Origin: Candidatus Bathyarchaeota archaeon
GTDB taxonomy: Archaea > Thermoproteota > Bathyarchaeia > TCS64
Assembly (NCBI GenBank): GCA_043826455.1
Contig: JBDRQD010000015.1
Coordinates: forward strand, 128,001-192,000
Length of the DNA stretch: 64,000 nucleotides
Reading direction: 5' to 3'
Below are positions 1 through 54,629 of the stretch, in pieces (the first letter of the stretch is position 1; the number at the start of each line of letters is the position of its first letter). The notes beneath the pieces are model-generated. The model made no database searches, was not told the origin of the DNA, and was given only the letters and a program-made list of their open reading frames with translations. A program made the position numbers and the translations under genes.

Positions 1-343
1 ACTTGATGAGTCCGGCCACCATCATCTGTAGTCCTCCGCCAGCGCTGCTGGTGGTACAGTAGAGGTCTACTCCCTTCTCCCCGTCGTAGGGCATTATTAT
101 GCCTGAGCCGTCGGGGGATAGGAGCTTGTGGCCGGTCAACTCCTCGACTTCACGTACCGCGTTCTGAACTCCGAGGGTTACGTCCTCGTAAGGGGTTTCT
201 ACGGTTGTGGGTGCTTCACCTGCCACCAGGAACCTCCACTCACCGTCCTTCAGGTGGAAAAACCTCGCCTTGGTGGTGGTGGATCCTACGTCAGTGACAA
301 TGATGTACTGCATCTCCTCAGTCGGCTTCTTGAGGGTTGCCAT
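1..343 (-). CDS. GlmL/MutL-family (glutamate mutase L-like) ASKHA protein, 5' part only; runs off the window
   Basis: Not in the ORF track. Manual translation from ATG at 343: MATLKKPTEEMQYIIVTDVGSTTTKARFF...APTTVETPYEDV...DLYCTTSSAGGGLQMMVAGLIK. The DVGSTTTK phosphate-1 and SSAGGGL motifs are typical of GlmL. Confidence 0.8.
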   Translation of the reverse strand, partial: MATLKKPTEEMQYIIVTDVGSTTTKARFFHLKDGEWRFLVAGEAPTTVETPYEDVTLGVQNAVREVEELTGHKLLSPDGSGIIMPYDGEKGVDLYCTTSSAGGGLQMMVAGLIK

Positions 344-689: not shown

Positions 690-1130
690 TCAGAAGGGTA
701 GCCAGCGCCGCCACCCTTTGCGCTCCTGAGGCTTCTCTGCTTCATCCCCCTTCTCCGGCTCGGGACTATCAGGGGGCTCCTCCTTGGGGGCCGCCTCCCC
801 AGCAGGGGCCTCCAGCTCCTTGACTGGGGGCTTGTACTCGCCCTTGGTCATCTGCTCGAGGATCTGGATGAGCTTCTCTATGTTCTTCCTGTCCTCGAAG
901 ACGTAGATGAGCTTCTCCCCCAGCATGTTGTACTGGGGGCCCAGGGCAGGCAGGAAGGGGGCTAGGACTACTCTGCTGAGTTCGCCGCCCACGTACACCA
1001 TGGGCTTGATGCTTTCGAGGGTGAGGATGGCCACGGTCTCCATGCCGTAGAGCTGTATCCTCTTAGCTGCGCCGTGGAGGACTTTGTCGACTTCCTCCTC
1101 GGATAGCTCCATGTCGCCCCAGGGGTACAT
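690..1130 (-). CDS. Conserved hypothetical protein (module A small partner; homolog of 41462..41755)
   Basis: ORF; YGMETVAILTLESIKP...SRVVLAPFLP aligns by eye with YGGETAALLAIRAFKY...GRVFLGPLTP; Pro/Glu-rich tail. Confidence 0.75.
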   Translation of the reverse strand: MYPWGDMELSEEEVDKVLHGAAKRIQLYGMETVAILTLESIKPMVYVGGELSRVVLAPFLPALGPQYNMLGEKLIYVFEDRKNIEKLIQILEQMTKGEYKPPVKELEAPAGEAAPKEEPPDSPEPEKGDEAEKPQERKGWRRWLPF

Positions 1131-1146
1131 CTCAGAACCATATATC

Positions 1147-1572
1147 TTACAGCTGATTTAAGGTATTATCTTCATCGGAGCCTGTGACGCTCTGCTTGGC
1201 GGGTCTCAGTCTCCGCCGGAGGGAGATGTAGGCGGACGTCAACCCTCCCAGGAGGAACATGACTAGGAGGAGGGCGAAGAAGGAGGTGGTGTTGCCCTGG
1301 GTGAACGCCCACAGGCTGACCACCACGAGAGCCCATGAGATCATCACGCACCTAATCGCAACCGGTAGCTCCGCTGCCCCTGTTCGTTTGCACACAAGGT
1401 AGCTGGGTATGAGGCCAGCCAAGTAGTACATGATGTAGGCCAGGACCCACGGGGGGTCGTAGAAGGTCTTGAGCTCTATCCAGAAGTACACTATGCCGTA
1501 GGCCAGCACGGCGCCCGCCATGTAGTCGGTTATCGATGGCCGTTTATCCCTGTCCAGGGTCAAATGTATCAT
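1147..1572 (-). CDS. Small ~4-TM membrane protein
   Basis: ORF with four hydrophobic segments, co-oriented with module A. Confidence 0.7.
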   Translation of the reverse strand: MIHLTLDRDKRPSITDYMAGAVLAYGIVYFWIELKTFYDPPWVLAYIMYYLAGLIPSYLVCKRTGAAELPVAIRCVMISWALVVVSLWAFTQGNTTSFFALLLVMFLLGGLTSAYISLRRRLRPAKQSVTGSDEDNTLNQL

Positions 1573-1626
1573 TTAACATGAATGTGGCTCGGATAAGAGT
1601 TTAATGTAAAAGAAATGGGGGAAGGT

Positions 1627-2346
1627 TTACTCCTTCTTGGGCCACGGCCTCTTCTCTGGTGGCAGCATGGCGTAGATGAGCAGTACCAGCACTATGGGTA
1701 GGGCTATGATCGCGCCTTGAAGCGGCAGCCACTGGTTGTAGATGAAGTCGAGTCTTCCGAAGATCATGTTGTACCTGGACAGCACAGTGTTGGCGAAGCT
1801 GTAGCTGAAAGCGGCCATCATCCCGTACCTTGCGATCTTGGGTATGATGCCGAGGCCGCCCTCGTGGGCCTTGGGGAACGTGAATAGGAAGAAGTAGACC
1901 GTGGTTACCACTAGGATGATGAAGATCAGGTTGCTGACCAACTTGAAGGGGTCCGTGACGCCTATCAACTTGATGGCTGCGGTGGACTTTATCTGGGTGA
2001 TGAACTCCGCGGTGACCACCGCCCTCATGCTGAGCCCTATGCCAAGGCCCACCATGATGGACAGGGGGTACCTGCTCACCCAGAAGTACTGTGGGTGGTA
2101 CCTCGAGTACAGTAGTATCCCGAGTAGGAAAACCACGATGTAGAGGTATGCTCCCCCCATCAGGTTGTCCCAGCCGTACCTCCTGATGTTGTCCACGCCG
2201 TAGACTAGGCTGTGCCCGGCGGCTGCTCCGACGAAGGTGTACTCAGCTAACTTGAAGAAGTCGTTGTCCCTGAAGGCGATGCTGTAGATCCATATGGTGA
2301 ATATGGCCGCCATCCAGATCTGTATGACTAGGTTTAGCTCCATCAC
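1627..2346 (-). CDS. Multi-pass membrane protein (module A subunit 4)
   Basis: Several hydrophobic helices; paralog of 39426..40052 (RDNDFF/KDNIVF, GAAAGH/GAATAH, WVSRYP/WVSKYP). Confidence 0.8.
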   Translation of the reverse strand: MMELNLVIQIWMAAIFTIWIYSIAFRDNDFFKLAEYTFVGAAAGHSLVYGVDNIRRYGWDNLMGGAYLYIVVFLLGILLYSRYHPQYFWVSRYPLSIMVGLGIGLSMRAVVTAEFITQIKSTAAIKLIGVTDPFKLVSNLIFIILVVTTVYFFLFTFPKAHEGGLGIIPKIARYGMMAAFSYSFANTVLSRYNMIFGRLDFIYNQWLPLQGAIIALPIVLVLLIYAMLPPEKRPWPKKE

Positions 2347-3194
2347 TTACTTCCTCCTGAGAATCTCTTGCCAAGGTAGGCGATGTTGCCTATGGCCACG
2401 TAGGCGAGGCAAAGCAGGTGAGTCAGGGTTATCACGTCGGCCGACTTGATGCCCCGGGCGGGGACCCTTACCAGGGTCTCCATCTCTCCTGCCTGTGCCC
2501 CAGATGTCACGGATATTATCTGTCCCGCGTTCTGGTATGGCAGCATAGTGGGGACCATCATGGCCAGCACAGAGCACATGTACCTTGTGCCGTAGACGGT
2601 GTACCACTGCCTTACCCAGCCCTCTGACTGGTCGCCGCCTGTGGTATAGCAGAGTAGTAGGTCGAAGCTGCTTGCGTCAGTTATACCATCCATGATGGTG
2701 TACTGGCTTAGTGGGTTACCCTTGTAGTCAGTGGAAGTTGTTGCTCTCAGGTCCTTTCCGATCGCAGCCATCGCCGTCTCTGTTCCAGCTATGTAGCCTA
2801 TGTGGATGTAGTCGACGCCGTACTGGGCGCCGTACTTTTGCTCTGGTCTGATCTCAGCCATGGCCTTGTCCCATAGCTGGGGTCCCTCGATGGATGTGGA
2901 CATGCAGATGACCTTAATGCCTCCCTTCCTGAAGAGGTGGTGGTAGACGGCTACTGCCATTGGGCCCAGCTCAGGCTCTCCGCCCCCGGAGTATCCGAAG
3001 TCTATCATGACGACGGAGCCTGGGGGTAGAGCTTCTATGGTCTGGTACCATTTTTGTGTGTTGGCCGAGACGGGTATAGGTAGGCCCAGGGGGTAAATCA
3101 TGGGAACCACGAAAACTACCAGAAGTATGCCATAGAGCACCTCTCTAGGTATGTTCTCCAGCGTGTCCCAGATGCTCTTACCTTGTCCACTCAT
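2343..3194 (-). CDS. Membrane-anchored protein with soluble alpha/beta domain (module A subunit 3)
   Basis: N- and C-terminal TM segments; paralog of 38570..39424 (IYPLGLP, ALPxGSVV, YGVDY); 4-nt overlaps with neighbours. Confidence 0.8.
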   Translation of the reverse strand: MSGQGKSIWDTLENIPREVLYGILLVVFVVPMIYPLGLPIPVSANTQKWYQTIEALPPGSVVMIDFGYSGGGEPELGPMAVAVYHHLFRKGGIKVICMSTSIEGPQLWDKAMAEIRPEQKYGAQYGVDYIHIGYIAGTETAMAAIGKDLRATTSTDYKGNPLSQYTIMDGITDASSFDLLLCYTTGGDQSEGWVRQWYTVYGTRYMCSVLAMMVPTMLPYQNAGQIISVTSGAQAGEMETLVRVPARGIKSADVITLTHLLCLAYVAIGNIAYLGKRFSGGSK

Positions 3195-3877
3195 GCTCCA
3201 CCGCCTCCTCTCTCCTCCTCGGTCAGTTTACCGAGGAACCCTGTCTCTCTACCGGTCATGGTCCTGATGCCCAGGGATATGGCTCCTAGGGCGCCACCGA
3301 TCATGATGCCACGCTGAGCCGAGGTCGTCAGCACGTCGCTGATGAAGCTCACCCAGGTTCCTAACACGGGGAAGTATACAGCCATTGCGGGCGCGTTCTT
3401 CGCCAACACTACCAAGCCTACGACCAAGAAGATACCTGACTCGACGTTCTTGAGCCTCAGAGCTCTGTAAAGCCCTGATGTCATGTAGAAGCCGAGGCTA
3501 GAGTACACTGTGGCGCTGAGGGCGAAGTAGGATGCATTGTAGAGCCAGTTATACTGATCTGAGGTTGGGCCCATTGCGACACCCGTTACAGTGAAGATCA
3601 CAATGACTATGAGAAGCCACAGGCTGAACTGCCACTGGTCCGGTGTCCGTCTGGATATGTGCTTGCTGTGGAAGTAGAAGAGGTTGACTGCGCCGAAGCC
3701 CAGCGCGAAGGCGGTGAGTATGATGCCCCAGTTCTGGAGGTTCGTCACCGTTAAGCTGGTCCAGCTCTTGCCGGCTGTGTTCACCGGTGGCGTGACGATG
3801 AAGTAGTCCATCATCACAATAAGGGCCACGACAAATACTATCACTACCGGTATCGTTTTCTTTAAAGTTGTCGACAT
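3191..3877 (-). CDS. Multi-pass membrane protein (module A subunit 2)
   Basis: About 6 TM; GGAGGT RBS upstream; paralog of 37918..38568. Confidence 0.8.
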   Translation of the reverse strand: MSTTLKKTIPVVIVFVVALIVMMDYFIVTPPVNTAGKSWTSLTVTNLQNWGIILTAFALGFGAVNLFYFHSKHISRRTPDQWQFSLWLLIVIVIFTVTGVAMGPTSDQYNWLYNASYFALSATVYSSLGFYMTSGLYRALRLKNVESGIFLVVGLVVLAKNAPAMAVYFPVLGTWVSFISDVLTTSAQRGIMIGGALGAISLGIRTMTGRETGFLGKLTEEERGGGGA

Positions 3878-3890
3878 TTCATCATACCTC

Positions 3891-4673
3891 CTACATTCCT
3901 AATAGGTCGACTATGAACGAACTGCCCGCGGCAGTCGCCAACACGCCTAGTATCATCAGTATCATTGCCAGTATCTTGCCGTAGTCCTGCCCTCTGGTGG
4001 TTCCTGCCTGTACGGGGTCCCCGGAGAGGTATGCTCCAGCTGCGTAGATCTCCTCTCCGATTAGCAAGTAGTCGCATATGACGGCGAAGAAGGGTATCTG
4101 GTATCCTCTGGCCGTTCCAGCCAGTTGTATGGATCCGATCCTGTTGAAGGTCTCCGCGAAGAGCATGGACTCAGCGTAGAAGGGTCCGATCATTATGTTG
4201 GCTGCGGGTCTCTCCCTCTCCGCGATACCCTGAACAGCGGAGGCGTAGGCGAACTGCTCGCCAGACAGGTACCTTACCTGGTCCTCCGCGTGGAACTCCT
4301 CCGCCTTGCCAGCCTTCACATAGGCTTCCTTCATGAGCTCTGTAGCGATAGGCATGACCTGAGCCGCGTACACCGAGTAGATGAGATTCACGCCATAGTT
4401 GGCGCACAGCTCAGCTACATAGGCTAGGACTGCGAGTCCAGCCACTAGCTGTGGTGCCACAGTTTCCGTTAAGCTTCCTAGTCCAGTCGTAAAGTGCACA
4501 GGCCTGTTCATCTCGGCTGCTCTGCCTACCATCTCTGGCAGTGCATCCAGGCCCGTCAGTTTTCTGAATTGTAGTTTTTGTTTTTTGGCCATCTCCATAC
4601 CGCCCAGTATGAAGATCCAGATTAGTATCAGCATTCCTAACGCGAAAATTCTGCCCGTAATAAGTATTGATAT
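3891..4673 (-). CDS. DUF6754-like protein (module A subunit 1); start at ATG 4634 or possibly ATA 4673
   Basis: Motifs RPVHFTTG, FYAESMLFAE, QIPFFAVICDYLLIGEEIYAAGAYLS; paralog of 37124..37918. Confidence 0.75.
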   Translation of the reverse strand: MSILITGRIFALGMLILIWIFILGGMEMAKKQKLQFRKLTGLDALPEMVGRAAEMNRPVHFTTGLGSLTETVAPQLVAGLAVLAYVAELCANYGVNLIYSVYAAQVMPIATELMKEAYVKAGKAEEFHAEDQVRYLSGEQFAYASAVQGIAERERPAANIMIGPFYAESMLFAETFNRIGSIQLAGTARGYQIPFFAVICDYLLIGEEIYAAGAYLSGDPVQAGTTRGQDYGKILAMILMILGVLATAAGSSFIVDLLGM

Positions 4674-4861: not shown

Positions 4862-5389
4862 ATGGTCGCCGACCAAGGAACTAGGATGCCTAGAAGGATC
4901 ATCTTCGCGGGAGCGAACATAGCCTTCGGGGTGTCTTTCATCGGCCTTGAGCTCCTGGGGCTCCTCTTCGGTGTCTCCCCAGCAGACCCAGAGCTGCAGG
5001 CAAACCTGAACCTGTTAATAGTTGGGATCAACCTGCTGGGCGGCTACGCCGGGGGCTACCTCGTGGCCAAGAACACCCAGGGAGATACGTTGCAGCAGGG
5101 GACACTGACAGGGGTTCTGGCTTACATTATCCAGCAGATAGTTCACGCCACTCTGTATGGGTTTGGCGCGGTGGGAAACGCGTTCACCACCCTGGCTCTC
5201 ATCGGAGGGGCCATGGCTGGGGCGGTTCTCCACGAATCACATATCAAGAGGCTGGCGAGGATCAGGGCCGCGGCTTCCCGGGCCGAGGAGGGAGAAAGCC
5301 CCGGTGGACCAGAGGGCTCCGAGGCTGGAACCGAAGAAGTGGCTGAAGGGGAGCCCGGGGAGAAGGGCGAGGCCCCGCCTGAGGGCTGA
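4862..5389 (+). CDS. Small 4-TM membrane protein with acidic C-terminal tail
   Basis: Gly-rich TM helices (GGYAGGYLVA, GGAMAGA); divergent from module A. Confidence 0.7.
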   Translation: MVADQGTRMPRRIIFAGANIAFGVSFIGLELLGLLFGVSPADPELQANLNLLIVGINLLGGYAGGYLVAKNTQGDTLQQGTLTGVLAYIIQQIVHATLYGFGAVGNAFTTLALIGGAMAGAVLHESHIKRLARIRAAASRAEEGESPGGPEGSEAGTEEVAEGEPGEKGEAPPEG

Positions 5390-5458: not shown

Positions 5459-8227
5459 ATGGAAACCCGAGGTGAAGCCATGCCCGAACCCAAGACTCTT
5501 GTGACCTCCGCCCTCATCTACGCCAACGGCCCCGTACACATAGGCCACATGTTGGAGAATATTCAGACGGATATCTATGTACGGTCGCAGAGGATTCGCG
5601 GCCGAGACATCATTTACTGTGGGGCTGAAGACACTCATGGTGCCCCCATAGAGATCAACGCCGCCAAGCAGGGTGTGACGCCCGAGGATTTCATCGACCA
5701 CTGGAAGCGGGAGCACAAGCGTGACTACGACGACTACCTGATCAGCTTCGACAGCTACTACTCAACTAACAGCCCGGAGAACCAGCACTACACGGAGCTC
5801 ATATTCAGGCGGCTCCAGGAGAGGGGGCACATCTACACCAAGGAGATGGAGCTCACCTTCTGTGAGCACTGCGAGAGGTACCTGCCGGATCGCTACGTGA
5901 AGGGCGCGTGCCCCAAGTGCGGCGCCCAGGACCAGTACGGGGACGTCTGCGAGAAGTGTAACAGCACTTACAGCACCACGGACCTGGTGAACCCCTACTG
6001 CAGCATCTGCGGGAACCCGCCTGTGCGCCGGAACAGCCTCCACTACTTCTTCAAGCTCAGCGAGTTCAGCGGCTGGCTGGAGAACTGGCTCAACACCAAC
6101 CAGAGCCTCCAGCCTGAGATCAGGAACCAGATACTGACCTGGGTCAGGGAGGGTCTCCAGGACTGGTGCATCAGCAGGGACGGCCCCTACTTCGGCTTCA
6201 GGATACCCGGGGAGGATAACAAGTACTTCTACGTGTGGCTGGACGCACCCATAGGCTACATAGCCAGCACCGCCAACTACTGCAGGGATAAGGGCTGCAC
6301 GGCTGACGACTACTGGCAGTCGGGGGACAGCAGGATCATTCACTTCATAGGCAAGGACATCATATACTTCCACCTCCTATTCTGGCCCGCCGTCCTCCAC
6401 GGCGCCGGGCTCCACGTGCCCGACAACGTGGTGGTCCACGGGTTCCTGACGGTGAACGGGGAGAAGATGAGCAAGAGCCGGGGCACCTTCCTCACAGCTG
6501 AGGAGTTCAAGGACTATGTGGACCCGGAGCTCACCCGATACTACTACGCCGCGAACCTCACCCACACCATGACCGACATCGACCTGGACCTGGTGAACCT
6601 GGAGAACAGGATCAACAACGAACTGGTATCCAACCTGGCCAACCTCTTCTACAGGGTCCTCAGCTTCCTCAACAAGTACTACGACAGCGAGACCACCACC
6701 ACGCTGGACGGTGGTCTCCTGGACGAGGTGAGGGCCAAGTGCGAGTCGGTGGGCCGCCATTACGACAACTACGACTTCAGGGACGCGGTCCGGGAGATGC
6801 TTGAGATCAGCAGCATGGGCAACAAGTATTTCCAGGACAACGCGCCGTGGGAGATGGTTAAATCCGATAAGGGTCGCGGCCAGAGGGTGCTCACGGACTG
6901 CGTCAACATCGTCAAGAACCTAACCCTTCTGATAAAACCCATCATGCCCCTGTTCGTGGAGAAGATGGAGAAGCAGCTCAACGTGCAGGCCATGGACTGG
7001 AGCCACATCGGAGAAGTGTTGGAGAATCACAGAATTGGGAAAGCCAGGATAGTCCTCAAGAAGATAGAGCCCATAGTGCTGAAGGCCAGGGACGAGGCCC
7101 CAGCAGAGCGTGAAGTCGAGTTCAGCATCGACGACAAGCTCGCCAAGATAGGCGTGGACGTGAAGCTGGCCATAATCCAAGGCGTAGGCATCAGGAAGAG
7201 CGAAGGCGAGCTGGAGAAGCTGAAGAAGCAGGCCGAGGAGAAGATCAGAGCCCTCCGAGTAGACGGTGATCCCATCATAGAGGGCTACAGGGAGGTGTAC
7301 CGGAGGTTCAAGGCCGACGAGGAGCCCCCCATGGCTCACCTGATAAAGCTCGTCAAGGAGAGGGGGATGCTCCCCAACATCAACACCGTCGTGGACGCCT
7401 ACAACATCATCTCAGCCACACGTCGCGTCAGCGTCGGGGTCCACGACCTGGACAAGGTGGTGGGCGGCGTCCGCCTCAAGGTGACCCAGGGCGATGAGGC
7501 CTATGTGCCCCTGGGCGAGACGGAGCCCGTGAAGGTACGGCCCGGGGCATTCGCCATGGTGGACCAGGAGCACGTCCTCTGCTACCTGGACGCCAAGCAG
7601 GGCCAGCACACCAAGATAGGGTACGACACCAGGAACCTGCTGGTCTACGTGCAGGGCAACGCCGAGACCAGCGGCACGTACCTGGATGCGGCCCTCCGCG
7701 AGATATGCGACCTCATCGTAAGGTTCAACGGCGGCAGCTACAGGCTGCTGAACCCCACGGACCTGTCGGCCCTCAACCTGAAAGTGGCCAAGGTTACGGA
7801 GGTCCTGGACCACCCGGGCGCCGACAAACTGTACATCATCAAGGTCGACCTGGGCTCGGAGAAGAGGCAGCTATGCGCCGGCCTCAAACCCTACTACCCG
7901 GACAGGAATGATCTTCTGGGGAAGCATCTTGTGGTCCTCACCAACCTTCAGCCCGCCAAGCTCAGGGGCGAGCTGAGCGAGGGCATGCTTCTGGCCGGGG
8001 ACGACGGCAAGGACGTGGGCGTACTGAGCCCCCAGAAATCCAAGCCAGGCGACCAGGTGTACGTCGGCGACATAAGGGATTACAAGGAAGACCTGATCAG
8101 CTTCGACCATTTCATGAAGTACAGGCTGGAGGCCGTGGACGGCAGAGCCTACATGGAGGGCCTGCCCCTGCACACGGACTCCGAGGAGATAAGGCTGGAG
8201 AAGGTGGCGAACGGCAGGATAAGGTAG
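5459..8227 (+). CDS. metG: Methionyl-tRNA synthetase with inserted B3/B4-like domain and C-terminal OB-fold tRNA-binding domain (start may be 5480)
   Basis: YANGPVHIGH, four CxxC knuckle motifs, YVWLDAPIGY, KMSKS; C-terminal HPGADKLY...SEGMLLA. Confidence 0.95.
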   Translation: METRGEAMPEPKTLVTSALIYANGPVHIGHMLENIQTDIYVRSQRIRGRDIIYCGAEDTHGAPIEINAAKQGVTPEDFIDHWKREHKRDYDDYLISFDSYYSTNSPENQHYTELIFRRLQERGHIYTKEMELTFCEHCERYLPDRYVKGACPKCGAQDQYGDVCEKCNSTYSTTDLVNPYCSICGNPPVRRNSLHYFFKLSEFSGWLENWLNTNQSLQPEIRNQILTWVREGLQDWCISRDGPYFGFRIPGEDNKYFYVWLDAPIGYIASTANYCRDKGCTADDYWQSGDSRIIHFIGKDIIYFHLLFWPAVLHGAGLHVPDNVVVHGFLTVNGEKMSKSRGTFLTAEEFKDYVDPELTRYYYAANLTHTMTDIDLDLVNLENRINNELVSNLANLFYRVLSFLNKYYDSETTTTLDGGLLDEVRAKCESVGRHYDNYDFRDAVREMLEISSMGNKYFQDNAPWEMVKSDKGRGQRVLTDCVNIVKNLTLLIKPIMPLFVEKMEKQLNVQAMDWSHIGEVLENHRIGKARIVLKKIEPIVLKARDEAPAEREVEFSIDDKLAKIGVDVKLAIIQGVGIRKSEGELEKLKKQAEEKIRALRVDGDPIIEGYREVYRRFKADEEPPMAHLIKLVKERGMLPNINTVVDAYNIISATRRVSVGVHDLDKVVGGVRLKVTQGDEAYVPLGETEPVKVRPGAFAMVDQEHVLCYLDAKQGQHTKIGYDTRNLLVYVQGNAETSGTYLDAALREICDLIVRFNGGSYRLLNPTDLSALNLKVAKVTEVLDHPGADKLYIIKVDLGSEKRQLCAGLKPYYPDRNDLLGKHLVVLTNLQPAKLRGELSEGMLLAGDDGKDVGVLSPQKSKPGDQVYVGDIRDYKEDLISFDHFMKYRLEAVDGRAYMEGLPLHTDSEEIRLEKVANGRIR

Positions 8228-33168: not shown

Positions 33169-35133
33169 TTAGCCGAGGTACTTCTTGAACCAGCGGGCCA
33201 TGTGCTCCAGGCGCTCCTTCCTGTGCTTGGGCTTGCCGCTGCGGCTCAGCTCGTGGCTCTCACCGGGGAACCTGATGAACTCGGTGGGCACCCCCAGCAC
33301 CTTGAGGGCCGTGAACAGCTGCTCGCCCTGCTCCATGGGGCACCTGTAGTCTTCCTCCGAGTGGATGATCATGGTGGGGGTCACCATGTTCTTCACGTAC
33401 CTTATGGGGCTCCTGGCCATGAACTCCTCCTCCATGTCCCACCAGTATCCGCCCAGCTCGGTCTTGCCGAAGGTCCAGCCGATGTCGCTGCACCCGAAGA
33501 AGGTGACCCAGTTGGTGATGCTGCGGAGGGTGATGGCTGCGGCGAACCTGTCCGTGTGGCCGATGATCCAGTTGGTCATGACGCCGCCGTAGCTGCCACC
33601 GGTGACCCCCAGCTTGGAGCCGTCCACCCACTTGTTGCGCTCCATGACCACGTCCACAGCCCTCATCAGGTCGTCGTAGTCCTGCTCAAAGTAGTGGCCC
33701 GGAAGGGCGGCCTGGTACTCCTCATAGTAGCCTCCGCTGCCCCACGGGTTGACGTAGAGGACGGCCCAGCCCTGGGCGGCCAGGTACTGGAACTCGTGCA
33801 CGAAGGCGTCCCCGTAGGCGCCCCTGGGGCCGCCGTGGATGTGCAGTATCAGCGGGTACTTCTTGGATGGGTCGAAGCCGGGGGGCTTCATGAGCCAGCC
33901 CTGCACCGTGTGGCCTGCGCTGCTCTTGAAGGTGAGCTCCTCGTGGGGCATTATCTCCGTCTTCTTCACGTAGTCCTTGTTGAGGTCGGTGACCTGCTTA
34001 GACTTCTCTCCGTCCCAGAGCCAGAGCTCCATGGGTTTGGTGGTGTCCAGCACAGTGTACGCCACCTTTCCGTCGTCGGTGACCGTGAAGGCCTCCACGC
34101 TGTGGTCTCTGCCCCCCAGCACCTTCTCCACGGGGCCGCCGCTCATATGCACTCTGTAGAGGTAGGCGTCGCCGTCCATGGGGCTGTTGAAGTAGAGGTG
34201 CTCGCCGCCCCAGGCCGGAAGGCTGTCGGGGCTGCTCACCCTGATGTCGCTGCTGAGCTTGGCGCCCAGGTCCTGGTCGAAGCCCGATGTGAGGTTCACG
34301 GGCTCCTCCCCCTCGGTGAGGGTCCAGACGTCACTGTTGGTGCCGCTGCCGTTGTGGTAGTCGTGGCCCGAGAAGGCTATGAGCCTCTTCTTGGGGTGGG
34401 GGCTGACGCCGCCGATGCTCATAAGCGTCCTGGTGAGCTGAGCCGGGTCGCCGCCCTTGGCGTCCACCTTGTACAGGTAGCTCCGGCGCACTATGTCCGC
34501 GTCGGGGTCCAGGTTGCTGGCGAACACGATGCTCTTGCCGTCGCTCATCCACTCAGCGTTGGACACGTCATACTCGCCCTTGGTCACCTGCTTCGCCTTG
34601 CCCCCCTTAGCGGGCACCGTGAACAGGTGCTTACGCAGGTTCTCGAAGAAGCCCCTTCCGTTGAACTTGTAGACTAGGCGGTCGATGACCTTGACGTCGC
34701 TGTCGCCCCTGTCCACCCGCTTCACGTTGCTGAGGAAGAGGATGCTCTTGCCGTTGGGGGCCCACCTAGGGCTGTCCACGCCGCTCTCCACGTCCGTCAG
34801 CTGCCGGGCCTCTCCGCCCGAGACGTCGATGACGTAGAGCTGGGTCTTCTTCTTCTCCCCGTTCTTGCCCGGGGGAGGCGTCGAAGTGAAGAGGATGCGG
34901 CTACCGTCGGTGCTCCACAGGGGGTTCTTGTCCTTCCTGCGGCCCGAGGTGTACTGGTAGACCTTGCCGGCGTCCAGCTCGGCCATCCAGAGGTCGCTGA
35001 GGTACTCGTCCTTCTCGAAGTCCAAGACGGTGTGGACGAAGACGGCGCGACCCCCGTCTGGGCTTATCTGGGGGTCCGATACTGCCTGGATGCTGGCCAG
35101 GTCCATGATCTCGACAGGCTTCCTGTCAGTCAT
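33169..35133 (-). CDS. S9 family peptidase (acylaminoacyl/dipeptidyl peptidase)
   Basis: PD40-type propeller repeats, IHGGP, GGSYGG, DYRC, ESHELSR. Confidence 0.93.
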   Translation of the reverse strand: MTDRKPVEIMDLASIQAVSDPQISPDGGRAVFVHTVLDFEKDEYLSDLWMAELDAGKVYQYTSGRRKDKNPLWSTDGSRILFTSTPPPGKNGEKKKTQLYVIDVSGGEARQLTDVESGVDSPRWAPNGKSILFLSNVKRVDRGDSDVKVIDRLVYKFNGRGFFENLRKHLFTVPAKGGKAKQVTKGEYDVSNAEWMSDGKSIVFASNLDPDADIVRRSYLYKVDAKGGDPAQLTRTLMSIGGVSPHPKKRLIAFSGHDYHNGSGTNSDVWTLTEGEEPVNLTSGFDQDLGAKLSSDIRVSSPDSLPAWGGEHLYFNSPMDGDAYLYRVHMSGGPVEKVLGGRDHSVEAFTVTDDGKVAYTVLDTTKPMELWLWDGEKSKQVTDLNKDYVKKTEIMPHEELTFKSSAGHTVQGWLMKPPGFDPSKKYPLILHIHGGPRGAYGDAFVHEFQYLAAQGWAVLYVNPWGSGGYYEEYQAALPGHYFEQDYDDLMRAVDVVMERNKWVDGSKLGVTGGSYGGVMTNWIIGHTDRFAAAITLRSITNWVTFFGCSDIGWTFGKTELGGYWWDMEEEFMARSPIRYVKNMVTPTMIIHSEEDYRCPMEQGEQLFTALKVLGVPTEFIRFPGESHELSRSGKPKHRKERLEHMARWFKKYLG

Positions 35134-37123: not shown

Positions 37124-37918
37124 ATGTCTTCAGTGATAGTTCCCGGTACAAGTTTAAGCGCAGTGGTTTTACTAGTAATCGCAGCCGCTTCCTACTACTA
37201 CTTCGAGAAAATTAAGGACCCAACATATCAACCAACGCTCAGGGACATCCCTGCTATAACCGCCATCAAGGAGGGCGTCGGGAAAAGCTTGGAGGAGGAT
37301 AAACCCGTCCACTACCAGATGGGCGCCAGTGGAGGACAGTTGTACAGTACACTTGTCTCGATGACCCTGGTCGCTTTGACGTTCCTGCGGTACATCAGCC
37401 GTCTATGCGCGGAGATGGGGGCGAGGCTCATTGTCCACATGCCCTACCAGGCCGAGAGCATCCCTCTGATCGAGGGTACGACTCTTGAAGGCTACAAGGA
37501 GGCTGGTAAACCTGAGGAGTTCAAGAGAGAGAATCTACGCTACTATGGACGTGGCGCACTCACGTGGACTCAAGGTGTTACAAAAAGCTTTTCTCAGGAA
37601 GGTGTGGGTCTCAATCTCGCCATAGGCATCTTTTACAGTGACTGCCCAATAAGTCTGGAGATGGCTAAGTACATGGGCGGGCTTAACGTCGGCGGCACAG
37701 GTCGCTGGATCATGGTATACGCTTTTGCCATGATGTGCGACTATGTCTTCTTGGGAGAAGAGATCTACGCAGCCGCAGCCGTTGTGAGCCAGGACAAGAT
37801 GATGCTGGTCGGAATGCTGATAGAAGAGGTCGGGAAGTTCTTCGTCTTCCTGCTACTAGGGTTAGGGTTAATCCTCTCTCTGGTGGGCATGGACATAGTG
37901 TCATTGTTATCGATGTGA
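37124..37918 (+). CDS. DUF6754-like protein (module B subunit 1)
   Basis: KPVHYQMG, CDYVFLGEEIYAAAA; paralog of 3891..4673. Confidence 0.78.
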   Translation: MSSVIVPGTSLSAVVLLVIAAASYYYFEKIKDPTYQPTLRDIPAITAIKEGVGKSLEEDKPVHYQMGASGGQLYSTLVSMTLVALTFLRYISRLCAEMGARLIVHMPYQAESIPLIEGTTLEGYKEAGKPEEFKRENLRYYGRGALTWTQGVTKSFSQEGVGLNLAIGIFYSDCPISLEMAKYMGGLNVGGTGRWIMVYAFAMMCDYVFLGEEIYAAAAVVSQDKMMLVGMLIEEVGKFFVFLLLGLGLILSLVGMDIVSLLSM

Positions 37919-38568
37919 TGAATATGTCTGCAACATGGAGAACCTTAATACCAACCCTGTTAGTGTCCGTGACAGCAATCCTAGTATTGGTGCCCTTCTT
38001 CCTCAACATCCCATTTCTGAATGACTTTAAGAGCACACTCAGCAGCTGGACCGTTATCATCAGCGCAGTCACCGGTGCCGCTCTTGGGGTAGTCTACATG
38101 ACTCACGCCATCTACGCCAGCTACCAGAGAAATAAGGATACCGAGCAGCTGATAATGGGTGTAACCACCTATGTTTTCATAGCACTTCACATAGGTCTTG
38201 CTCTGACTCAGCCTGGTGGCGTCAACAGCTCCGCGTACCAGTGGTGGTACACGGTGGTGTACCAGAACGTGGGCGCAACGATCTACGCCTTCATGTTCTT
38301 CACCCTCGCAAGCAGCGCATACAGAACAATGATTCTGAACAGCGTCGAGGCAACATCCCTAGCGATAGGTGGACTAATATACACTTTGAGACAGATACCC
38401 CTCTTCCAGACCTGGCTCCCGTGGATAGTTCCACTCGGTGAGTGGATACTTCTAGTCCCCAACGTAGCCGGAAGCCGTGGCGCCGTAATCGCGGCCGCCC
38501 TGGCAGCAACGGTGTACGGAGTCAGAACCATCTGGGGCAAGGAGATTAGCCTCAGGGAGGTGTCCTAA
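37918..38568 (+). CDS. Multi-pass membrane protein (module B subunit 2)
   Basis: Paralog of 3191..3877; start ATG 37918 or 37924. Confidence 0.78.
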   Translation: MNMSATWRTLIPTLLVSVTAILVLVPFFLNIPFLNDFKSTLSSWTVIISAVTGAALGVVYMTHAIYASYQRNKDTEQLIMGVTTYVFIALHIGLALTQPGGVNSSAYQWWYTVVYQNVGATIYAFMFFTLASSAYRTMILNSVEATSLAIGGLIYTLRQIPLFQTWLPWIVPLGEWILLVPNVAGSRGAVIAAALAATVYGVRTIWGKEISLREVS

Positions 38569-38569
38569 C

Positions 38570-39424
38570 ATGAGTGACAGACCCGCAGGCAAAGACGAGA
38601 GCATCATCGTAAAGCTAGGCACATTACCGCCCAACCTATACTTCTGGGTCCACCTCGCAGGCATCATACTGATGTTCATCCCGTTAATCTATCCCCTCGG
38701 TCTACCTGTTCAAACCAGCCAGCCAGTAATAGACTACGTTAATACCCTTGACGCTCTACCAGAGGGCAGCGTCGTGGCCGTTAGCTTCGGCGCAAGCGCC
38801 TCTCTCCTCGACGAACAGGAGGCACAGTTCCTGGCGACGTGGAAGATACTCTTCAGCAACAAACTGAAGGTAATATTCTATAGCACGACAGAGGACGCCA
38901 ATATCATCCTCGACCGTGAGCTAGGAGTGGTTAAGCCAAGTAGCTACGGCTACACCTATGGAGTTGACTATGTACTGCTGGGCTACAGCCCCCTAGGTGA
39001 AGCAGGTGAAGCAGCGTTTGTCCAGAACATCCGCAGCCTGTACCCAGTTGACTACTACGGTACCCCGTTGAACAATATACCTTTGATGAAGGACATAAAC
39101 GACGCGAGTGGAATAGATCTAGTAATCTTCGAGTACACAGCATGTACGAGCGTCGAGTGGGTGATCCGTCAGTGGGTCGTGCCCTTCAACAAGCCTGCAT
39201 TAGGAACGACTCTTGGCTGCTGTGGACCTATGGCTGCGCCCTATTACCCTAGCCAGCTCAAGGGCTTCCTGAGTGGAAGTGGAGCCGGGACCGAGATCGA
39301 GGTCGTGTCCGGTTTCCCTGGCCCAGGGGCAGCTATGAGTGACAGCAAGAGCTTAGGCATACTACCGTGGCTGTTAAGCATGGTTTTCGCGAACCTTGCT
39401 TGGTTCCTTAGGAGGTCGAAGTAG
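38570..39424 (+). CDS. Membrane-anchored protein (module B subunit 3)
   Basis: Paralog of 2343..3194. Confidence 0.8.
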   Translation: MSDRPAGKDESIIVKLGTLPPNLYFWVHLAGIILMFIPLIYPLGLPVQTSQPVIDYVNTLDALPEGSVVAVSFGASASLLDEQEAQFLATWKILFSNKLKVIFYSTTEDANIILDRELGVVKPSSYGYTYGVDYVLLGYSPLGEAGEAAFVQNIRSLYPVDYYGTPLNNIPLMKDINDASGIDLVIFEYTACTSVEWVIRQWVVPFNKPALGTTLGCCGPMAAPYYPSQLKGFLSGSGAGTEIEVVSGFPGPGAAMSDSKSLGILPWLLSMVFANLAWFLRRSK

Positions 39425-39425
39425 C

Positions 39426-40052
39426 ATGGCTGATCTATTAATGGGACTCGTGGGCACCTTCTTCATAGTCGCAACTCTATCCGTTCTGTGGAAAGACAAC
39501 ATTGTATTCCGCTTCGGACAGGCAGCCGTTATGGGCGCTGCCACCGCTCACTACATGATTATGAGCGCGACGAGCATCCAGAGCATGGTCCTGTCGCAGA
39601 TGCAACTGATACCGATAATTGGCCTAATACTGGGTTTGCTGATGTACACGAGGCTATTTAGCAAGATCGCGTGGGTCAGCAAGTACCCGAGCAGCATCCT
39701 GGTCGGCGTAGGCATAGGCGTTATGCTGGCTGGGACGATTAAAGGCCAGATACTTCAGCAGGTAGGTATGACACTCGGCGACATCCAGACCGCGTTGTTC
39801 ACCACAGGCGACTCCGTAGCCATACTGAACAGCATACTGATCTTCATAGGCGTGGTAACCAGTCTAACCTACTTCCTCTTCACGATAGAGCACAAGGGGA
39901 CGGTGGGCATCCTCGCGAAGGTTGGACGCGTATTCCTGATGATATCATTGGGAGCCAACTTCTCAGGGGAGCTCGTCTGGTACCAGACGCAGATGATCGG
40001 TAGGCTAATGTTCATAATACAGAACCTTTTAGCGCCTCTAGGATTAGCTTAA
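39426..40052 (+). CDS. Multi-pass membrane protein (module B subunit 4)
   Basis: Paralog of 1627..2346; followed by a T-tract. Confidence 0.8.
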   Translation: MADLLMGLVGTFFIVATLSVLWKDNIVFRFGQAAVMGAATAHYMIMSATSIQSMVLSQMQLIPIIGLILGLLMYTRLFSKIAWVSKYPSSILVGVGIGVMLAGTIKGQILQQVGMTLGDIQTALFTTGDSVAILNSILIFIGVVTSLTYFLFTIEHKGTVGILAKVGRVFLMISLGANFSGELVWYQTQMIGRLMFIIQNLLAPLGLA

Positions 40053-40127: not shown

Positions 40128-41465
40128 ATGATGAGTACAAATCTTTGGAAAAGGAAATCAGCTCAAGTATCCGAGATCCCTGGAACAAAGGTCAAAGAAG
40201 CATTAGTCAAAGCCGGGCTCCCCCTGGACTCAGTGTACCCCCTAGCTGAGAGGGCTGAGGGCGTTTGGATCCAGGACATAGACGGCAACGTCTTCATGGA
40301 CTTCATCAGCGGCAGATGCACAGTGAACTGTGGTCACAACCACCCACGCCTACTGAAGGCGGTTCAGGAGCAGGTCGGGAAGGTGACTCATGGTCTCACA
40401 CCTAACAGGCTTCAACTCCTTGAGTCGTTGAAAAAAGTATCACCCTTCAAAGGCGAGGAACAGGCAATGACGTTGGCCCTCAGCGGTAGCGCGGCCAACG
40501 ACGCGGCCATGAAGCTCGCCCGAAGCTACACCCGCAGACAGAACTTCATCGCCTTCGCGGGCGCCTACCATGGCACCACGTTCGGCGCCATGGCTCTCAG
40601 CAGCTACGTGACGAGGATGAGGGAGCAGTTCTACCCCATGGTGCCAGGCGTGTGCCACATGCCCTTTCCGCACTGCTTCAGGTGCCCGTTCGGCCACAAA
40701 TCCAATGAGGAGTGTGGCATGGCGTGCCTCGACTACATTACAAAGTATGCGGCGAAGACTTACTGTCCACCGAGCGAGGTCGCGGCCGTGATCATGGAGC
40801 CCATCGCAGGCGACGCAGGGTGGCTGGTGCCCCCGAAGGAGTTCGTCGTAGGGATCAGAAAATGGTGCAGTGAAAACGATATCCTGTACATAAGCGAGGA
40901 GGTGCAGGCAGGCTACGGCAGAGCCGGCGAGTGGTGGGGCGTAAACCTCTGGGGCGTGGAGCCCGACGCCATAATCCTGGGCAAGGCCATGGCGGGCGGG
41001 ATGGCCCCCATGAGCGGCGTCCTCTACAAGAGTGAGCTGGGTAAGAACGGCTTCTACCACGGCCACACCATGGGGGGCCACCCGGTGGGCTGCGCAGCTT
41101 CAATAGCCAACATAGGCGTGATCCGGGACGAGCGCCTTTGCGAGGCCTCCAAGAAAATGGGTAAACACCTGATGAGCCGCCTCAACAAGATGAAGGACGA
41201 CTACGAGCCCATCATCGATGTCAGAGGCAGGGGCCTCCTGATAGGCGTCGAGATCGGAGGCGTACACGGCCGTACCAGTAAGGAGATGGCCGGCGAGATA
41301 TGCAAGAGCGCTTTCAGGAAAGGGCTGTACATAATAGAGATGGGGAGCTGGGACACGGGTGTCCTGAGGGTGGCGCCTCCTCTGGTGATCACGGGTGAGC
41401 AGGCGGACTGGGCGCTGAACACCTTGGAAGAAGCCGTCCGCGAGACCTTGAGGAAGTATAAATGA
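40128..41465 (+). CDS. Class-III PLP enzyme, possibly an amino-acid racemase/epimerase
   Basis: SGSAAND, AYHGTT, EPIAGDAG, EEVQAGYGRAG, LGKAMAGG. Confidence 0.8.
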   Translation: MMSTNLWKRKSAQVSEIPGTKVKEALVKAGLPLDSVYPLAERAEGVWIQDIDGNVFMDFISGRCTVNCGHNHPRLLKAVQEQVGKVTHGLTPNRLQLLESLKKVSPFKGEEQAMTLALSGSAANDAAMKLARSYTRRQNFIAFAGAYHGTTFGAMALSSYVTRMREQFYPMVPGVCHMPFPHCFRCPFGHKSNEECGMACLDYITKYAAKTYCPPSEVAAVIMEPIAGDAGWLVPPKEFVVGIRKWCSENDILYISEEVQAGYGRAGEWWGVNLWGVEPDAIILGKAMAGGMAPMSGVLYKSELGKNGFYHGHTMGGHPVGCAASIANIGVIRDERLCEASKKMGKHLMSRLNKMKDDYEPIIDVRGRGLLIGVEIGGVHGRTSKEMAGEICKSAFRKGLYIIEMGSWDTGVLRVAPPLVITGEQADWALNTLEEAVRETLRKYK

Positions 41466-41755
41466 AGCTGTTCGACTGGTGGGGTAAGATCGTCACAGAG
41501 GAAGAGGAGACGCAGATGCTCCACCGGATCGAGGCGAAGATAAAGACGTATGGAGGCGAGACAGCGGCGCTCCTGGCCATCAGGGCCTTCAAGTACGTCA
41601 GCTACATAGGAGTGATGATGGGCCGGGTCTTTCTGGGCCCGCTGACTCCCATAATCACCCACGAGCACGACATTTTCCTCACCACCATCGGCAGGCGCGA
41701 AAACCTTGAATTACTGGAGGAGGCCCTCGATGAGTCAAGACGCGCCAAAACCTAG
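41462..41755 (+). CDS. Conserved hypothetical protein (homolog of 690..1130)
   Basis: Shared motif YGxETxAxL...RVxLxPxxP...RxNxExL. Confidence 0.75.
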   Translation: MKLFDWWGKIVTEEEETQMLHRIEAKIKTYGGETAALLAIRAFKYVSYIGVMMGRVFLGPLTPIITHEHDIFLTTIGRRENLELLEEALDESRRAKT

Positions 41756-42113
41756 CCCCCGGGAAATATTGATATCGTTAGTCGTGGCCTTCAGTATTTT
41801 CCTCATAACCGCTCTCCTAGCGCTCCCCCCCAGTTACAACGACTACAACGATCTTGTCATCAACTTCTTTTACATGGCTCCAGGCCCCCTGGTGGCGTCT
41901 CTGGTGCTGGCCAAGGTCTACCAGCGGAACGCCGTGAACAGGGGCGTCCTGATAGGCATCGTCACATACTTCCTGAGCCCCCTGGTGCTGCCCAGCGGGG
42001 GGATGGTCTGGGTTCTAGAGGCCGCCAGACTGGGCGGCGCAGGATTTGGCGGCGCCATAGGCGCCAGAATCATGGAGCTGTACCGGGCTAAGGGCTCCAG
42101 TGAGGAGAGGTAG
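41730..42113 (+). CDS. Small ~4-TM membrane protein
   Basis: Hydrophobic ORF overlapping the previous gene; Gly-rich last helix. Confidence 0.65.
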   Translation: MSQDAPKPSPREILISLVVAFSIFLITALLALPPSYNDYNDLVINFFYMAPGPLVASLVLAKVYQRNAVNRGVLIGIVTYFLSPLVLPSGGMVWVLEAARLGGAGFGGAIGARIMELYRAKGSSEER

Positions 42114-44750: not shown

Positions 44751-45653
44751 TTGGCGGTAAATTTGATCAAATCAAACGTCGAATCCCTTGTCAGACAGAA
44801 ACTAGTTGGAGAGGTGATCCACCCCGAACTCTGGGTGGAGCGCAACTATGTCACCACCTGGGATGGTAGGCCCAAGCTGACCGTGGGGATCGGAGGCATC
44901 GTCTACAACGTCAGGGTGGGCGACCCGGTTTTCGGTTGGTCGTCTGACCATCTGAACGCAGGGGCAGCTGTCTCCCACAAGGATCAGTCGAGGATGATGG
45001 CGCTCAACATATTCAGCTGCATAGGGAACAAGGCCAGGGTCATCAGCGGCGAGGCGAAGGGGACGGAGGGCGTGGTAGTGGGCAAGACCTACTTCTACCC
45101 GGGCCACTCATACAGGATTGTAGTCGATTTCCCTCATGACGGCCTCTCCAAGCTGGCGATAGAGGACAAGGTTGAGGTGGAGGCCTGGGGCTCAGGTCTG
45201 ACCATCGAGGGGTTCGAGGATGTGAGAGTCCTCTCCCTCTCACCTAGGCTGCTTGAGGCGATGGGCGTTGAGGCTCATGACGGTAAGCTGAGGGTGCCAG
45301 TGGTCAAGGAGCTGCCAGGGAAGATGATGGGGGTTGGCGTGGGCCGAGGGCCGACGGAGTGCGGTGCCTGGGAGATCCAGTCCTGCAGCCGCGAGCTCAA
45401 CGAGGAGCTGGGGCTTGAGAGGTTGAGGTTCGGGGACTTGGTCGCGGTGAGGGACGTGGACTCCGACTGGGGGCACGGCGTCTACGAGGGCGGCGTCGTG
45501 GTCGGCGTCGTCTCTCATGGCGCCAGCGAGATAGGCGGCCACGGCCCGGGGATAGCCGTCATATTCTCGTCCAAGAGGGGAAGAATCGAGCCCGTCATCG
45601 ACGAGGGGGCCAACGTTGGCCGGTACCTCGGCCTCAGAGTAGACCTGGAGTGA
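44751..45653 (+). CDS. DUF4438-like protein, copy 1
   Basis: GGIVYNVRVGD, CIGNKARVISGEAKG, LRFGDLVA, HGPG. Confidence 0.75.
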   Translation: MAVNLIKSNVESLVRQKLVGEVIHPELWVERNYVTTWDGRPKLTVGIGGIVYNVRVGDPVFGWSSDHLNAGAAVSHKDQSRMMALNIFSCIGNKARVISGEAKGTEGVVVGKTYFYPGHSYRIVVDFPHDGLSKLAIEDKVEVEAWGSGLTIEGFEDVRVLSLSPRLLEAMGVEAHDGKLRVPVVKELPGKMMGVGVGRGPTECGAWEIQSCSRELNEELGLERLRFGDLVAVRDVDSDWGHGVYEGGVVVGVVSHGASEIGGHGPGIAVIFSSKRGRIEPVIDEGANVGRYLGLRVDLE

Positions 45654-45659
45654 GGAAGC

Positions 45660-46538
45660 TTGCGTACTAACGTTGATCGTCTCGTGAAGCAGGCGGTCAT
45701 GGGGGAGGTGTCACACCCCATGGCCGGGACGTACAGGACCACCTTCGAGGGGAGGCCCAGCATGGTGCCGGGGATGTACGGCGTCAAGCTCAACTTCAGG
45801 GTCGGTGACCCCGCCTACGGTTACGTCTCGGACCATCTTGAGCCCGGCGTATGCATCGTGAACCCTGGCTCGGTGCGGCAGCACACGGCCCTCAACGCCT
45901 TCGCCTGCATAGGGAACGAGGCGAGGGTGGTGTCAGGCGACGCGAGGGGCGCCGCAGGTGTCGTGACGGGTAAGCACGGATGGCAGAACACGTTCATAGA
46001 CTTCCCCCCGGAGGTCCTCGGGAAGCTGGTGTCGGGGGATAAGGTTCAGGTGACGGGCTGGGGCACTGGCCTCACGGTGGAGGGCTACGAGGACCTTCGG
46101 TTCATGTCCATGTCGCCGCGCCTCCTCAAGGCCCTGGGGGTGGAGGATGAGGGCTCCAGCCTCTCCGTCCCGGTTGTGATGGAGGTTCCCGGCAGGATGA
46201 TGGGCTCCGGGATGGGAGGAGGGACGGGAGGCATGCCGGACCTTGGGGACTTTGACATCCAGAGCACCTGCCCGGAGCTCACCGAGAGGTACGGCTTTTC
46301 GCGGCTCCGCATAGGCGACATAGTGGCCATAAGGGACATCCTGGCTCACTACGCCCGGGGTATACACCCGGGGGCTGTCACCATTGCTGTCGTTTCCCAT
46401 GGGGCGAGCGGGACCACAGGCCACGGGCCTGGGTGCGCGCCCATCATCTCTAGTCCTCCGGGGAGGGTTAGCCCAGTCGCAGACGAGGGGATGAACGTCG
46501 CCCGCCTGTTGGAGCTGCGGCCAGACATTGCCTGGTGA
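45660..46538 (+). CDS. DUF4438-like protein, copy 2
   Basis: DHLEPG, CIGNEARVVSGDARG, GKHG, LRIGDIVA, HGPG. Confidence 0.78.
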   Translation: MRTNVDRLVKQAVMGEVSHPMAGTYRTTFEGRPSMVPGMYGVKLNFRVGDPAYGYVSDHLEPGVCIVNPGSVRQHTALNAFACIGNEARVVSGDARGAAGVVTGKHGWQNTFIDFPPEVLGKLVSGDKVQVTGWGTGLTVEGYEDLRFMSMSPRLLKALGVEDEGSSLSVPVVMEVPGRMMGSGMGGGTGGMPDLGDFDIQSTCPELTERYGFSRLRIGDIVAIRDILAHYARGIHPGAVTIAVVSHGASGTTGHGPGCAPIISSPPGRVSPVADEGMNVARLLELRPDIAW

Positions 46539-50533: not shown

Positions 50534-50616
50534 GAAGCATCCGCCGCCTTCCCGGGATATAAAGCATTGTAGCCCACGGGCTTTTATCTTCAGCCGGCAA
50601 CACTAGGTTGATCTCA

Positions 50617-53030: not shown

Positions 53031-53103
53031 GTCATTAGACCACTCCGCCACCACGCCTCCACAGTTTTTTACGCTCCGGACGCTTTTTCCTATCTGAGTT
53101 TTC

Positions 53104-54552: not shown

Positions 54553-54629
54553 CCCTTTCAACCCCCTTATTGCTGGTTTCGATGATAGGTTTTTATCCCT
54601 ATGGGGCTTTATCCCTTTAGGGACGACTG

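Follow-up and report, generated by a model that had tools for sequence, protein, structure and literature searches.

A 64,000-nucleotide stretch of a Candidatus Bathyarchaeota genome (assembly GCA_043826455.1, contig JBDRQD010000015.1, positions 128,001 to 192,000; hereafter the window) carries close to its left edge, at 690-4673, a set of genes whose products may constitute a nutrient importer powered by an actin-fold ATPase. The six genes of this locus are labelled A to F in reading order; the next gene, G, encodes a GlmL/MutL-like ATPase of the ASKHA superfamily and is directly followed by H, which encodes a protein of 391 amino acids belonging to no family. It is proposed here, with a probability of roughly 45%, that the products of A, B, C and D form an ATP-driven four-subunit importer of peptides or amide-type nutrients, energised by a shared G-H pair. 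The parts of this proposal differ in strength: that A-B-C-D form a complex is very probable on the grounds of their joint inheritance, a functional link between A-B-C-D and G-H is just as strongly indicated by gene order and co-occurrence, and solute import is fairly probable. The architecture appears to be categorically new, and the function attached to it is a prediction.

Gene content and inheritance of the locus

The genes of the locus, together with the part of G that lies in the window, are the following:

3891..4673, minus strand: A, a DUF6754 protein of about 260 amino acids (PF20539, E-value 2e-77; 260 bits against a cut-off of 27)
3191..3877, minus strand: B, a six-helix membrane protein of no named family
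2343..3194, minus strand: C, two membrane helices flanking a soluble domain, no named family
1627..2346, minus strand: D, a six-helix membrane protein of no named family
1147..1572, minus strand: E, a small membrane protein, an archaeal accessory whose relatives are weakly like DUF3792/TIGR04086
690..1130, minus strand: F, a small protein of no named family, which accompanies the module and G-H in archaea and bacteria
2..343, minus strand: 5' end of G at the left window edge, a long GlmL/MutL-like ASKHA ATPase of 611 amino acids that runs beyond the window (PF13941, E-value 7e-117; complete at L002:8508-10343)

The tightly packed operon described in the original prediction is borne out, as the six minus-strand open reading frames (ORFs) are separated, from A to F, by 13, -4, -4, 54 and 16 nucleotides, negative values denoting overlap. 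The start codon of A is most likely the ATA at 4673, because the N-terminal 'GR' segment of its homologs is thereby restored. Two further claims did not hold: A and C, counted there among four membrane genes, each consist of two helices around a soluble domain of about 190-210 amino acids and are thus more than simple membrane proteins; and the conserved set is not the six genes, since homologs of E were found in archaeal loci alone (27 of 158 scanned DNA records), but A-B-C-D together with F-G-H. The ATPase and its partner H, lying directly to the left of the locus, had been overlooked, which left the earlier interpretation incomplete.

With regard to known families, A exceeds the curated cut-off of DUF6754 (PF20539) and is thus a member of it; this family has no recorded function in Pfam, and the partners that regularly accompany A, namely B, C, D, F and H, stand outside every Pfam and NCBIfam family. 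No Pfam or NCBIfam family was matched over cut-off by B, C, D, E or F. The best conserved core subunit is A, with a mean identity of 42% as against 32-35% for B to D. Relatives of B fall into 2866 clusters at 50% identity, all without a family name, an Atlas search yielded solely clusters without names for C and, for A, no named match that could be used, and those homologs of C that do bear names belong to Bathyarchaeia. Sequence searches against solved structures gave nothing significant (best E-values 0.48 for A, 0.17 for B, 0.014 for C, none for D and 0.25-1.5 for G).

The order of the four core genes is nearly invariant. Where at least 2.6 kb of sequence was available downstream of A, as for 127 A genes from archaea and bacteria, B-C-D follow in 122 cases, the remaining five comprising A-B (one), A-B-C (two), A alone (one) and a copy split by inserted genes (one). 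Pairwise distances among A, B, C and D correlate at 0.72-0.80 across 112 non-redundant sets, and the nearest neighbour of A ranks within the top three for B, C and D in 91, 85 and 87 of these sets, where chance would give 3. Because order is fixed and distances are correlated, A-B-C-D are seen to duplicate and travel as one unit, from which a heteromeric complex is inferred. The heteromeric unit that had been suspected is in this way supported by order, by co-inheritance and by the lack of a known family for B, C and D; for A, DUF6754 is the sole family matched. Covariation between subunits stays at the level of shuffled controls for most pairs in the 112 paired sets, which are too shallow for this purpose; the higher values for C-D (z 7.85 and 7.81, shuffled maxima 4.9-5.8) and B-D (7.3, against 5.6-6.3) are given no weight, as they come from 112 rows and the shuffle breaks relatedness.

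The unit is widespread. DUF6754 occurs in 49 of 151 genomes of the class Bathyarchaeia, including all 29 other sampled members of the archaeon's own family, with up to 15 copies in one relative (G064). A scan of species genomes, of which the best 80 of 606 confirmed stretches were taken, yielded at least 79 loci in Bathyarchaeia, Methanomethylicia, Bacillota, Zixiibacteriota, WOR-3, Eisenbacteria, Cloacimonadota, Planctomycetota, Ignavibacteria and others. The genome studied here holds eight complete A-B-C-D copies with a mutual identity of 22-56%, their order always kept. Regarding expression, RNA-library contigs cover A to D in all four of four runs from four studies, the D-C, C-B and B-A junctions are bridged in one of them (X1), and in another (X13) a single contig of a relative links the 3' end of D to G. 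These contigs offer no more than a weak hint, as the runs were picked by matching this stretch and the contigs give neither transcript nor level. A scan for sigma-70 promoters and terminators remained at chance level, the model being unsuited to an archaeon.

The putative ATPase G and its partner H

A and H were each searched in the same samples, namely the 151 class genomes and a Bacillota sample, 452 genomes in total, and they were found together in 71, one without the other in 5 and neither in 376. Within the class the figures are 47 with both, 2 with A only, 1 with H only and 101 with neither, spread over eight families, and within the Bacillota sample 24, 1, 1 and 275, respectively; no P value is attached to this co-occurrence because related genomes are not independent. 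A long form of G (about 570-670 amino acids, some cut by contig ends) is present in 47 of the 49 A-positive class genomes, and the four class genomes which have only a short GlmL of about 470 amino acids all lack A. In many bacteria the genes are arranged as F-G-H-A-B-C-D or F-A-B-C-D-G-H, and in two Bacillota loci (L163, L164) the whole system forms one seven-gene operon of the latter order. The present genome has three G and three H for its eight modules; between the archaeon and bacteria G is 54-55% and H 49-52% identical, whereas the archaeon's own A-D paralogs share only 22-56%.

In its sequence, G matches PF13941 across all 450 of 450 profile positions, is about 125 amino acids longer than GlmL, and shows weak MreB-like and BcrAD matches. 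In 24 G sequences the core residues of two motifs, D-x-G-S-T-T-T-K and G-G-A-T-T, which we take to be the ASKHA phosphate-1 and phosphate-2 motifs, are 92-100% conserved. In the G of this particular locus the usual phosphate-2 Asp is replaced by Gly and, just after it, Asn stands where most members have Asp, so that the ATPase of this copy may be altered. A 'glutamate mutase' subfamily is listed among the monomeric members of the actin superfamily in a review (PMC5597319).

Given the full-length PF13941 match, G might simply be an ordinary reactivating factor of B12-dependent mutases whose link to the module arose by chance. This explanation deserves hardly any credence and is largely refuted already. 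The known GlmL/MutL and Or-4 families (PF13941, NF040745, NF040744, TIGR01319), accessory to B12 mutases, share the ASKHA core with G; on the other hand, G is longer, is linked to H, occurs in genomes without a mutase match over cut-off and falls below three curated cut-offs (GlmL, Or-4 and glmL_fam; 216 against 475, 219 against 600 and 142 against 204 bits), and is hence not an equivalog. No match to PF06368, PF01642 or PF06751 (glutamate mutase E, methylmalonyl-CoA mutase and EutB) was found in this 98%-complete genome, and PF09043 (aminomutase; 0 of 151 class genomes) and PF02286 (diol dehydratase) were likewise blank, though no control genome gave a match to either of these two. Glutamate mutase E was matched over cut-off in none of the 151 class genomes; weak matches adjoin the short GlmL in two of them (G129, G117), and one further weak match occurs in G112. 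Moreover, 71 of the 76 genomes with either A or H have both.

As for H, weak matches to barrel-sandwich-hybrid domains (Biotin_lipoyl in 22 and RnfC_N in 12 of 34 members), a weak RraA-like middle (E-value 0.18) and a weak KOW-like C-terminus (NusG/Spt5 KOW, E-value 0.017; PF00467, 9e-4) were obtained. Among the 34 sequences no Lys is conserved above 68%, and hence no biotin or lipoyl carrier Lys is evident; the same holds for His and Cys, so that H shows no obvious phosphocarrier residue.

These features bear on an explanation in which uptake is coupled to chemistry, G-H being an ATP-dependent enzyme, kinase-like or hydantoinase/oxoprolinase-like, that alters the substrate during or after its entry through A-B-C-D. 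Weak ASKHA likeness of G to the A subunits of hydantoinase and oxoprolinase (PF01968, PF05378) in 13-15 of 23 sequences (Hydant_A_N in 13, Hydantoinase_A in 15), the RraA-like middle of H, the amide-hydrolase context and the amidohydrolase, creatininase and aminotransferase neighbours would all suit such an enzyme. Nevertheless, the matching stretches of G are short and below cut-off, a B subunit is lacking, H has no relationship to one in Pfam terms and shows a hydantoinase B match in 0 of 34 members nor any obvious phosphocarrier residue, and a few highly conserved G-H pairs stand against many modules with differing hydrolase neighbours. We regard this explanation as unlikely.

Several further observations concern G and H themselves. 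On another contig of this genome (C47), L008:6822-9457 encodes a third, more divergent G (590 amino acids) and a short H (288 amino acids) without the KOW-like end; the 17-kb stretch that holds them contains no module, and similar short forms of H recur in many relatives. Bacillota possess a second, longer type of H (about 430-480 amino acids; for instance L165:11841-13190), often in tandem as G-H-F-G-H, and some of their genomes give five to seven H matches. In six Bacillota loci (L161, L163-L167) the system lies directly beside ORFs whose starts resemble those of tsaE-tsaB-rimI-tsaD. A short GlmL (451 amino acids) beside a fused B12-binding/mutase-E-like gene is located about 1.7 kb from an A-B-C-D module at L168:1021-4028, the sole place where the classical GlmL/mutase-E pair and the module were seen together.

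Predicted topology and proposed transport mechanism

The sidedness of the membrane subunits was predicted from mean Lys+Arg counts flanking the helices in alignments of 103-149 rows. In A, two helices flank a predicted cytoplasmic alpha/beta domain, which is placed inside the cell because a count of 4.65 directly follows helix 1. In C the counts are 3.1 ahead of helix 1 and 3.4 behind helix 2, as compared with 1.2 and 1.7 on the domain side, and its domain is therefore predicted to lie outside. B is predicted to have six helices with both termini inside, and D six helices with its N-terminus outside, the charge signal being weaker in the latter; in all, A-B-C-D would contain about 16 membrane helices. 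Two insertions are consistent with this model: FG-GAP repeats in the predicted outer loop of B and fn3 domains that precede helix 1 in bacterial A. A search for long forms of B gave seven proteins of 425-651 amino acids, two of them with FG-GAP repeats; none of the seven is marked with a DUF6754 domain in a precomputed Pfam annotation, which speaks weakly against fusion.

In the model of C (predicted local distance difference test, pLDDT, 95.4) a Rossmann-like domain of six strands is framed by two long helices, and the model of B (pLDDT 89.6; predicted template-modelling score 0.72) consists entirely of helices, of which three are long. Foldseek searches with both, which the original prediction had recommended, recovered nothing at E-values of 0.001 or below; a wide structural search with B found helix fragments only (best Z 5.8, residues 32-142). 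The absence of specific structural matches for these two models does not, in itself, establish a new fold. In an hhalign comparison A and C match in register across 121 columns beginning at helix 1 (probability 29-33%, score 33), with scores of 17-19 for reversed controls and at most 19.7 for 15 column shuffles, which suggests, without proving it, that A and C stem from an inverted duplication and that C is possibly a distant paralog of A. Conserved polar residues are located in or near the helices (E35 and R191 of D, R189 of B, N270 of C), and D also conserves R92 and Q118; no conserved Cys or redox motif is present in A to D.

How such a machine might work can be sketched as follows. The outer domain of C would capture a peptide or amide, B and D, in which Glu, Arg and Asn residues are buried and conserved, would provide the membrane path, and the conserved inner domain of A would dock G-H, perhaps through F, so that ATP turnover in G could drive the uptake cycle. 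A few conserved G-H pairs (three here) may serve many divergent modules (eight here, 15 in the relative G064), each of which would feed the cytoplasmic hydrolase encoded beside it. One ECF (energy-coupling factor) energiser serves many S components in the group II ECF importers, and a single conserved energiser for many scattered, divergent modules would be alike in this respect. This working analogy ends at the components: the module has no ABC ATPase, EcfT or S-component match, its ATPase is actin-fold, and its four subunits expose soluble domains on either side of the membrane.

Profile searches of the subunits agree with the original prediction that no ABC, TRAP, MFS or ECF motif is present. 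ABC_tran (PF00005) was not matched in A to H, and an ABC ATPase recurs near only five bacterial loci; no Pfam or NCBIfam match to permease, EcfT, S-component or binding-protein families was found in the window and genome copies of B, in 116 C and in 102 D; a single B gave a sub-cut-off TMD0_ABC match (E-value 0.0026); and the membrane subunits matched no profile of TRAP, MFS or other curated secondary carriers, nor of TrkH.

It may also be asked whether A-B-C-D is instead an ion-driven secondary transporter or a gated channel, which G-H-F regulate or remodel without powering it. The weak homology of A and C on opposite faces, reminiscent of inverted repeats, the charged residues conserved within or close to the helices of B, C and D, and the resemblance of C to RCK domains (Z 9.2) would be in keeping with such a carrier, as would the standing of GlmL relatives, which are regarded as remodelling factors. 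However, the near-strict co-occurrence with G-H probably exceeds what regulators usually show, homology between B and D is undetectable, and the RCK-like domain of C is predicted to be extracellular. In this regard, the domain of C aligns with RCK domains (TrkA/KtrA) and class I solute-binding lobes at Z 8.8-9.2 (root-mean-square deviation 3.5-3.9 over 120-142 residues), yet these matches are tied with unrelated Rossmann folds, and C has a single lobe anchored at both ends and predicted outside. An ion-driven carrier is accordingly judged distinctly unlikely.

A different kind of membrane machine, such as an exporter, a system for lipid or envelope handling or an energy-conserving complex, is suggested by the large outer additions on bacterial A and B (fn3, FG-GAP) and by the RnfC/NqrA-type barrel-sandwich matches in H. 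Against it stand the missing conserved Cys or redox motif of A to D, the lack of a biotin or lipoyl Lys in H (best Lys 68%) and the cytoplasmic-looking hydrolase neighbours, which favour import; its probability is accordingly quite low.

Gene neighbourhoods, candidate substrates and significance

Substrate hints come mainly from the neighbours of the archaeal modules. With queries drawn only from other genomes, 92 peptidase, amidohydrolase and aminotransferase genes were identified in the present genome, and seven of its eight modules have such a gene within 1.5 kb, as compared with 7.9% of 20,000 random places. These neighbours vary by module: M14 peptidase (two modules), S9 peptidase plus class III aminotransferase, amidohydrolase, creatininase, TldD, and S9 plus M20 peptidases. 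The one module without a hydrolase neighbour is the copy at 690-4673, which lies beside F-G-H instead. In other archaeal loci, 36 of 139 genes near the module were of hydrolase type, against 8 of 102 genes far from it; as the queries were drawn from those same loci, these figures are inflated. A signal-like N-terminus was seen in 0 of 9 hydrolase-type neighbours in this genome; import is favoured over export because these enzymes, lacking such a segment, look cytoplasmic.

The second copy of the module in the window illustrates this arrangement, as do the features around it, which are listed here with the E-like gene next to the first copy:

37124..37918, plus strand: A of copy 2, a divergent DUF6754 protein (PF20539, E-value 9e-31, 107 bits; 34% identity to A, E-value 4e-31)
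37921..38568, plus strand: B of copy 2 (28% to B, E-value 1e-16)
38570..39424, plus strand: C of copy 2 (31% to C, E-value 9e-38)
39396..40052, plus strand: D of copy 2 (28% to D, E-value 5e-26)
40128..41465, plus strand: class III aminotransferase directly after copy 2 (PF00202, E-value 2e-96)
41462..41755, plus strand: F homolog of copy 2 (30% to F, E-value 2e-11)
41706..42113: small membrane gene of the size of E near copy 2, missed by the E profile
33169..35133, minus strand: S9 peptidase 2 kb upstream of copy 2, N-terminus not signal-like (PF00326, E-value 1e-50)
4862..5389, plus strand: divergent E-like small membrane protein (TIGR04086, E-value 3.5e-6, below cut-off; a member of the E profile)

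Copy 2 (37124-40052), whose F homolog and E-sized gene are separated from the core by the aminotransferase, is genuinely paralogous to the first copy in each of the four core genes (28-34%), and every subunit motif quoted in the original prediction is present in both copies; its statement that the module is present twice holds for this pair, but not for the genome, which contains eight. The link of the paralogs to peptidases and aminotransferases likewise stands in archaea, where different amide or peptide hydrolases accompany them, whereas it was not seen in bacterial loci; substrate specificity of the paralogs would be a further step.

A signalling or sensing machine could also be envisaged, in which the outer domain of C senses a ligand and A relays this to G-H, whose KOW-like end could contact the transcription or translation machinery. 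The weak NusG/Spt5 KOW match of H and the location of bacterial single copies among housekeeping genes would fit a sensor, whereas the twelve helices of B and D seem to exceed the needs of a receptor, no regulator family occurs in more than three loci among 799 neighbours, and archaeal copies adjoin catabolic enzymes; a role of this kind therefore seems improbable.

Several results weigh against an importer energised by G-H, and they should be considered together. A complete A-B-C-D set occurs in one genome (G252) in which H gave no match, in another (G163) G-H is present but A is not matched, and of 82 long loci only 30 contain G or H. The weak hydantoinase A likeness seen in 15 of 23 G sequences is as compatible with an enzyme as with a motor. 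The fold matches of C are generic and tied, with DUF1890 at Z 9.5 (root-mean-square deviation 3.6, 139 aligned), the TrkA/KtrA RCK domain at 9.2 and a class I binding-protein lobe at 8.8 (3.5, 120 aligned). Hydrolases are not enriched near bacterial modules (Bacillota, 2 of 28 near against 4 of 44 far; other bacteria, 3 of 155 against 1 of 162), and the P values of the archaeal association are overstated because families were chosen after the neighbourhoods had been viewed and kin share synteny. In addition, homology between B and D was set aside as undemonstrated, its score of 21.9 being close to the 20.9 of the reversed control.

Other genes of the window and its relatives are worth recording. 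Two tandem DUF4438 genes are located at 44751-46538 (plus strand), with relatives recurring near modules in three loci, and three M20 peptidase paralogs plus an M14 peptidase are clustered in the right part of the window (50608-56921 and 58571-61102). A DUF483-like gene just downstream of D in seven loci (L043:6216-7109; L001:5624-6520) is the commonest non-enzyme neighbour after E and F. At 5459-8227 (plus strand) a methionyl-tRNA synthetase of 922 amino acids contains a B3/4 domain (E-value 1e-15), which is an editing domain, between its anticodon and C-terminal tRNA-binding domains.

A search of the literature, with most subscription papers and supplements outside its reach, found no description of this system, including under DUF6754 or PF13941, and to our knowledge an actin-fold ATPase has not been reported to power any solute transporter. 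On a broader and somewhat more doubtful reading, the system would be a new class of primary active transporter with an actin/Hsp70-fold ATPase in place of an ABC, P-type or rotary ATPase, in which one conserved G-H(-F) energiser serves up to 15 interchangeable four-subunit modules whose inner and outer domains are pseudo-symmetric; spread over Bathyarchaeia and many anaerobic bacterial phyla, it would act as a main uptake route for the products of peptide and amide breakdown. If true, this would add a new energy-coupling class for transport, and the seven-gene Bacillota operons make the system testable as a single cassette. Bathyarchaeia are proposed peptide fermenters. In one study, no peptide transporter is reported from several of its Bathyarchaeia genomes, which is ascribed to possible incompleteness, and the onset of protein degradation is left open (PMC9534799). 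A large unannotated family of putative uptake systems, encoded beside peptidases that look cytoplasmic, therefore bears directly on the way in which Bathyarchaeia may take up peptides.

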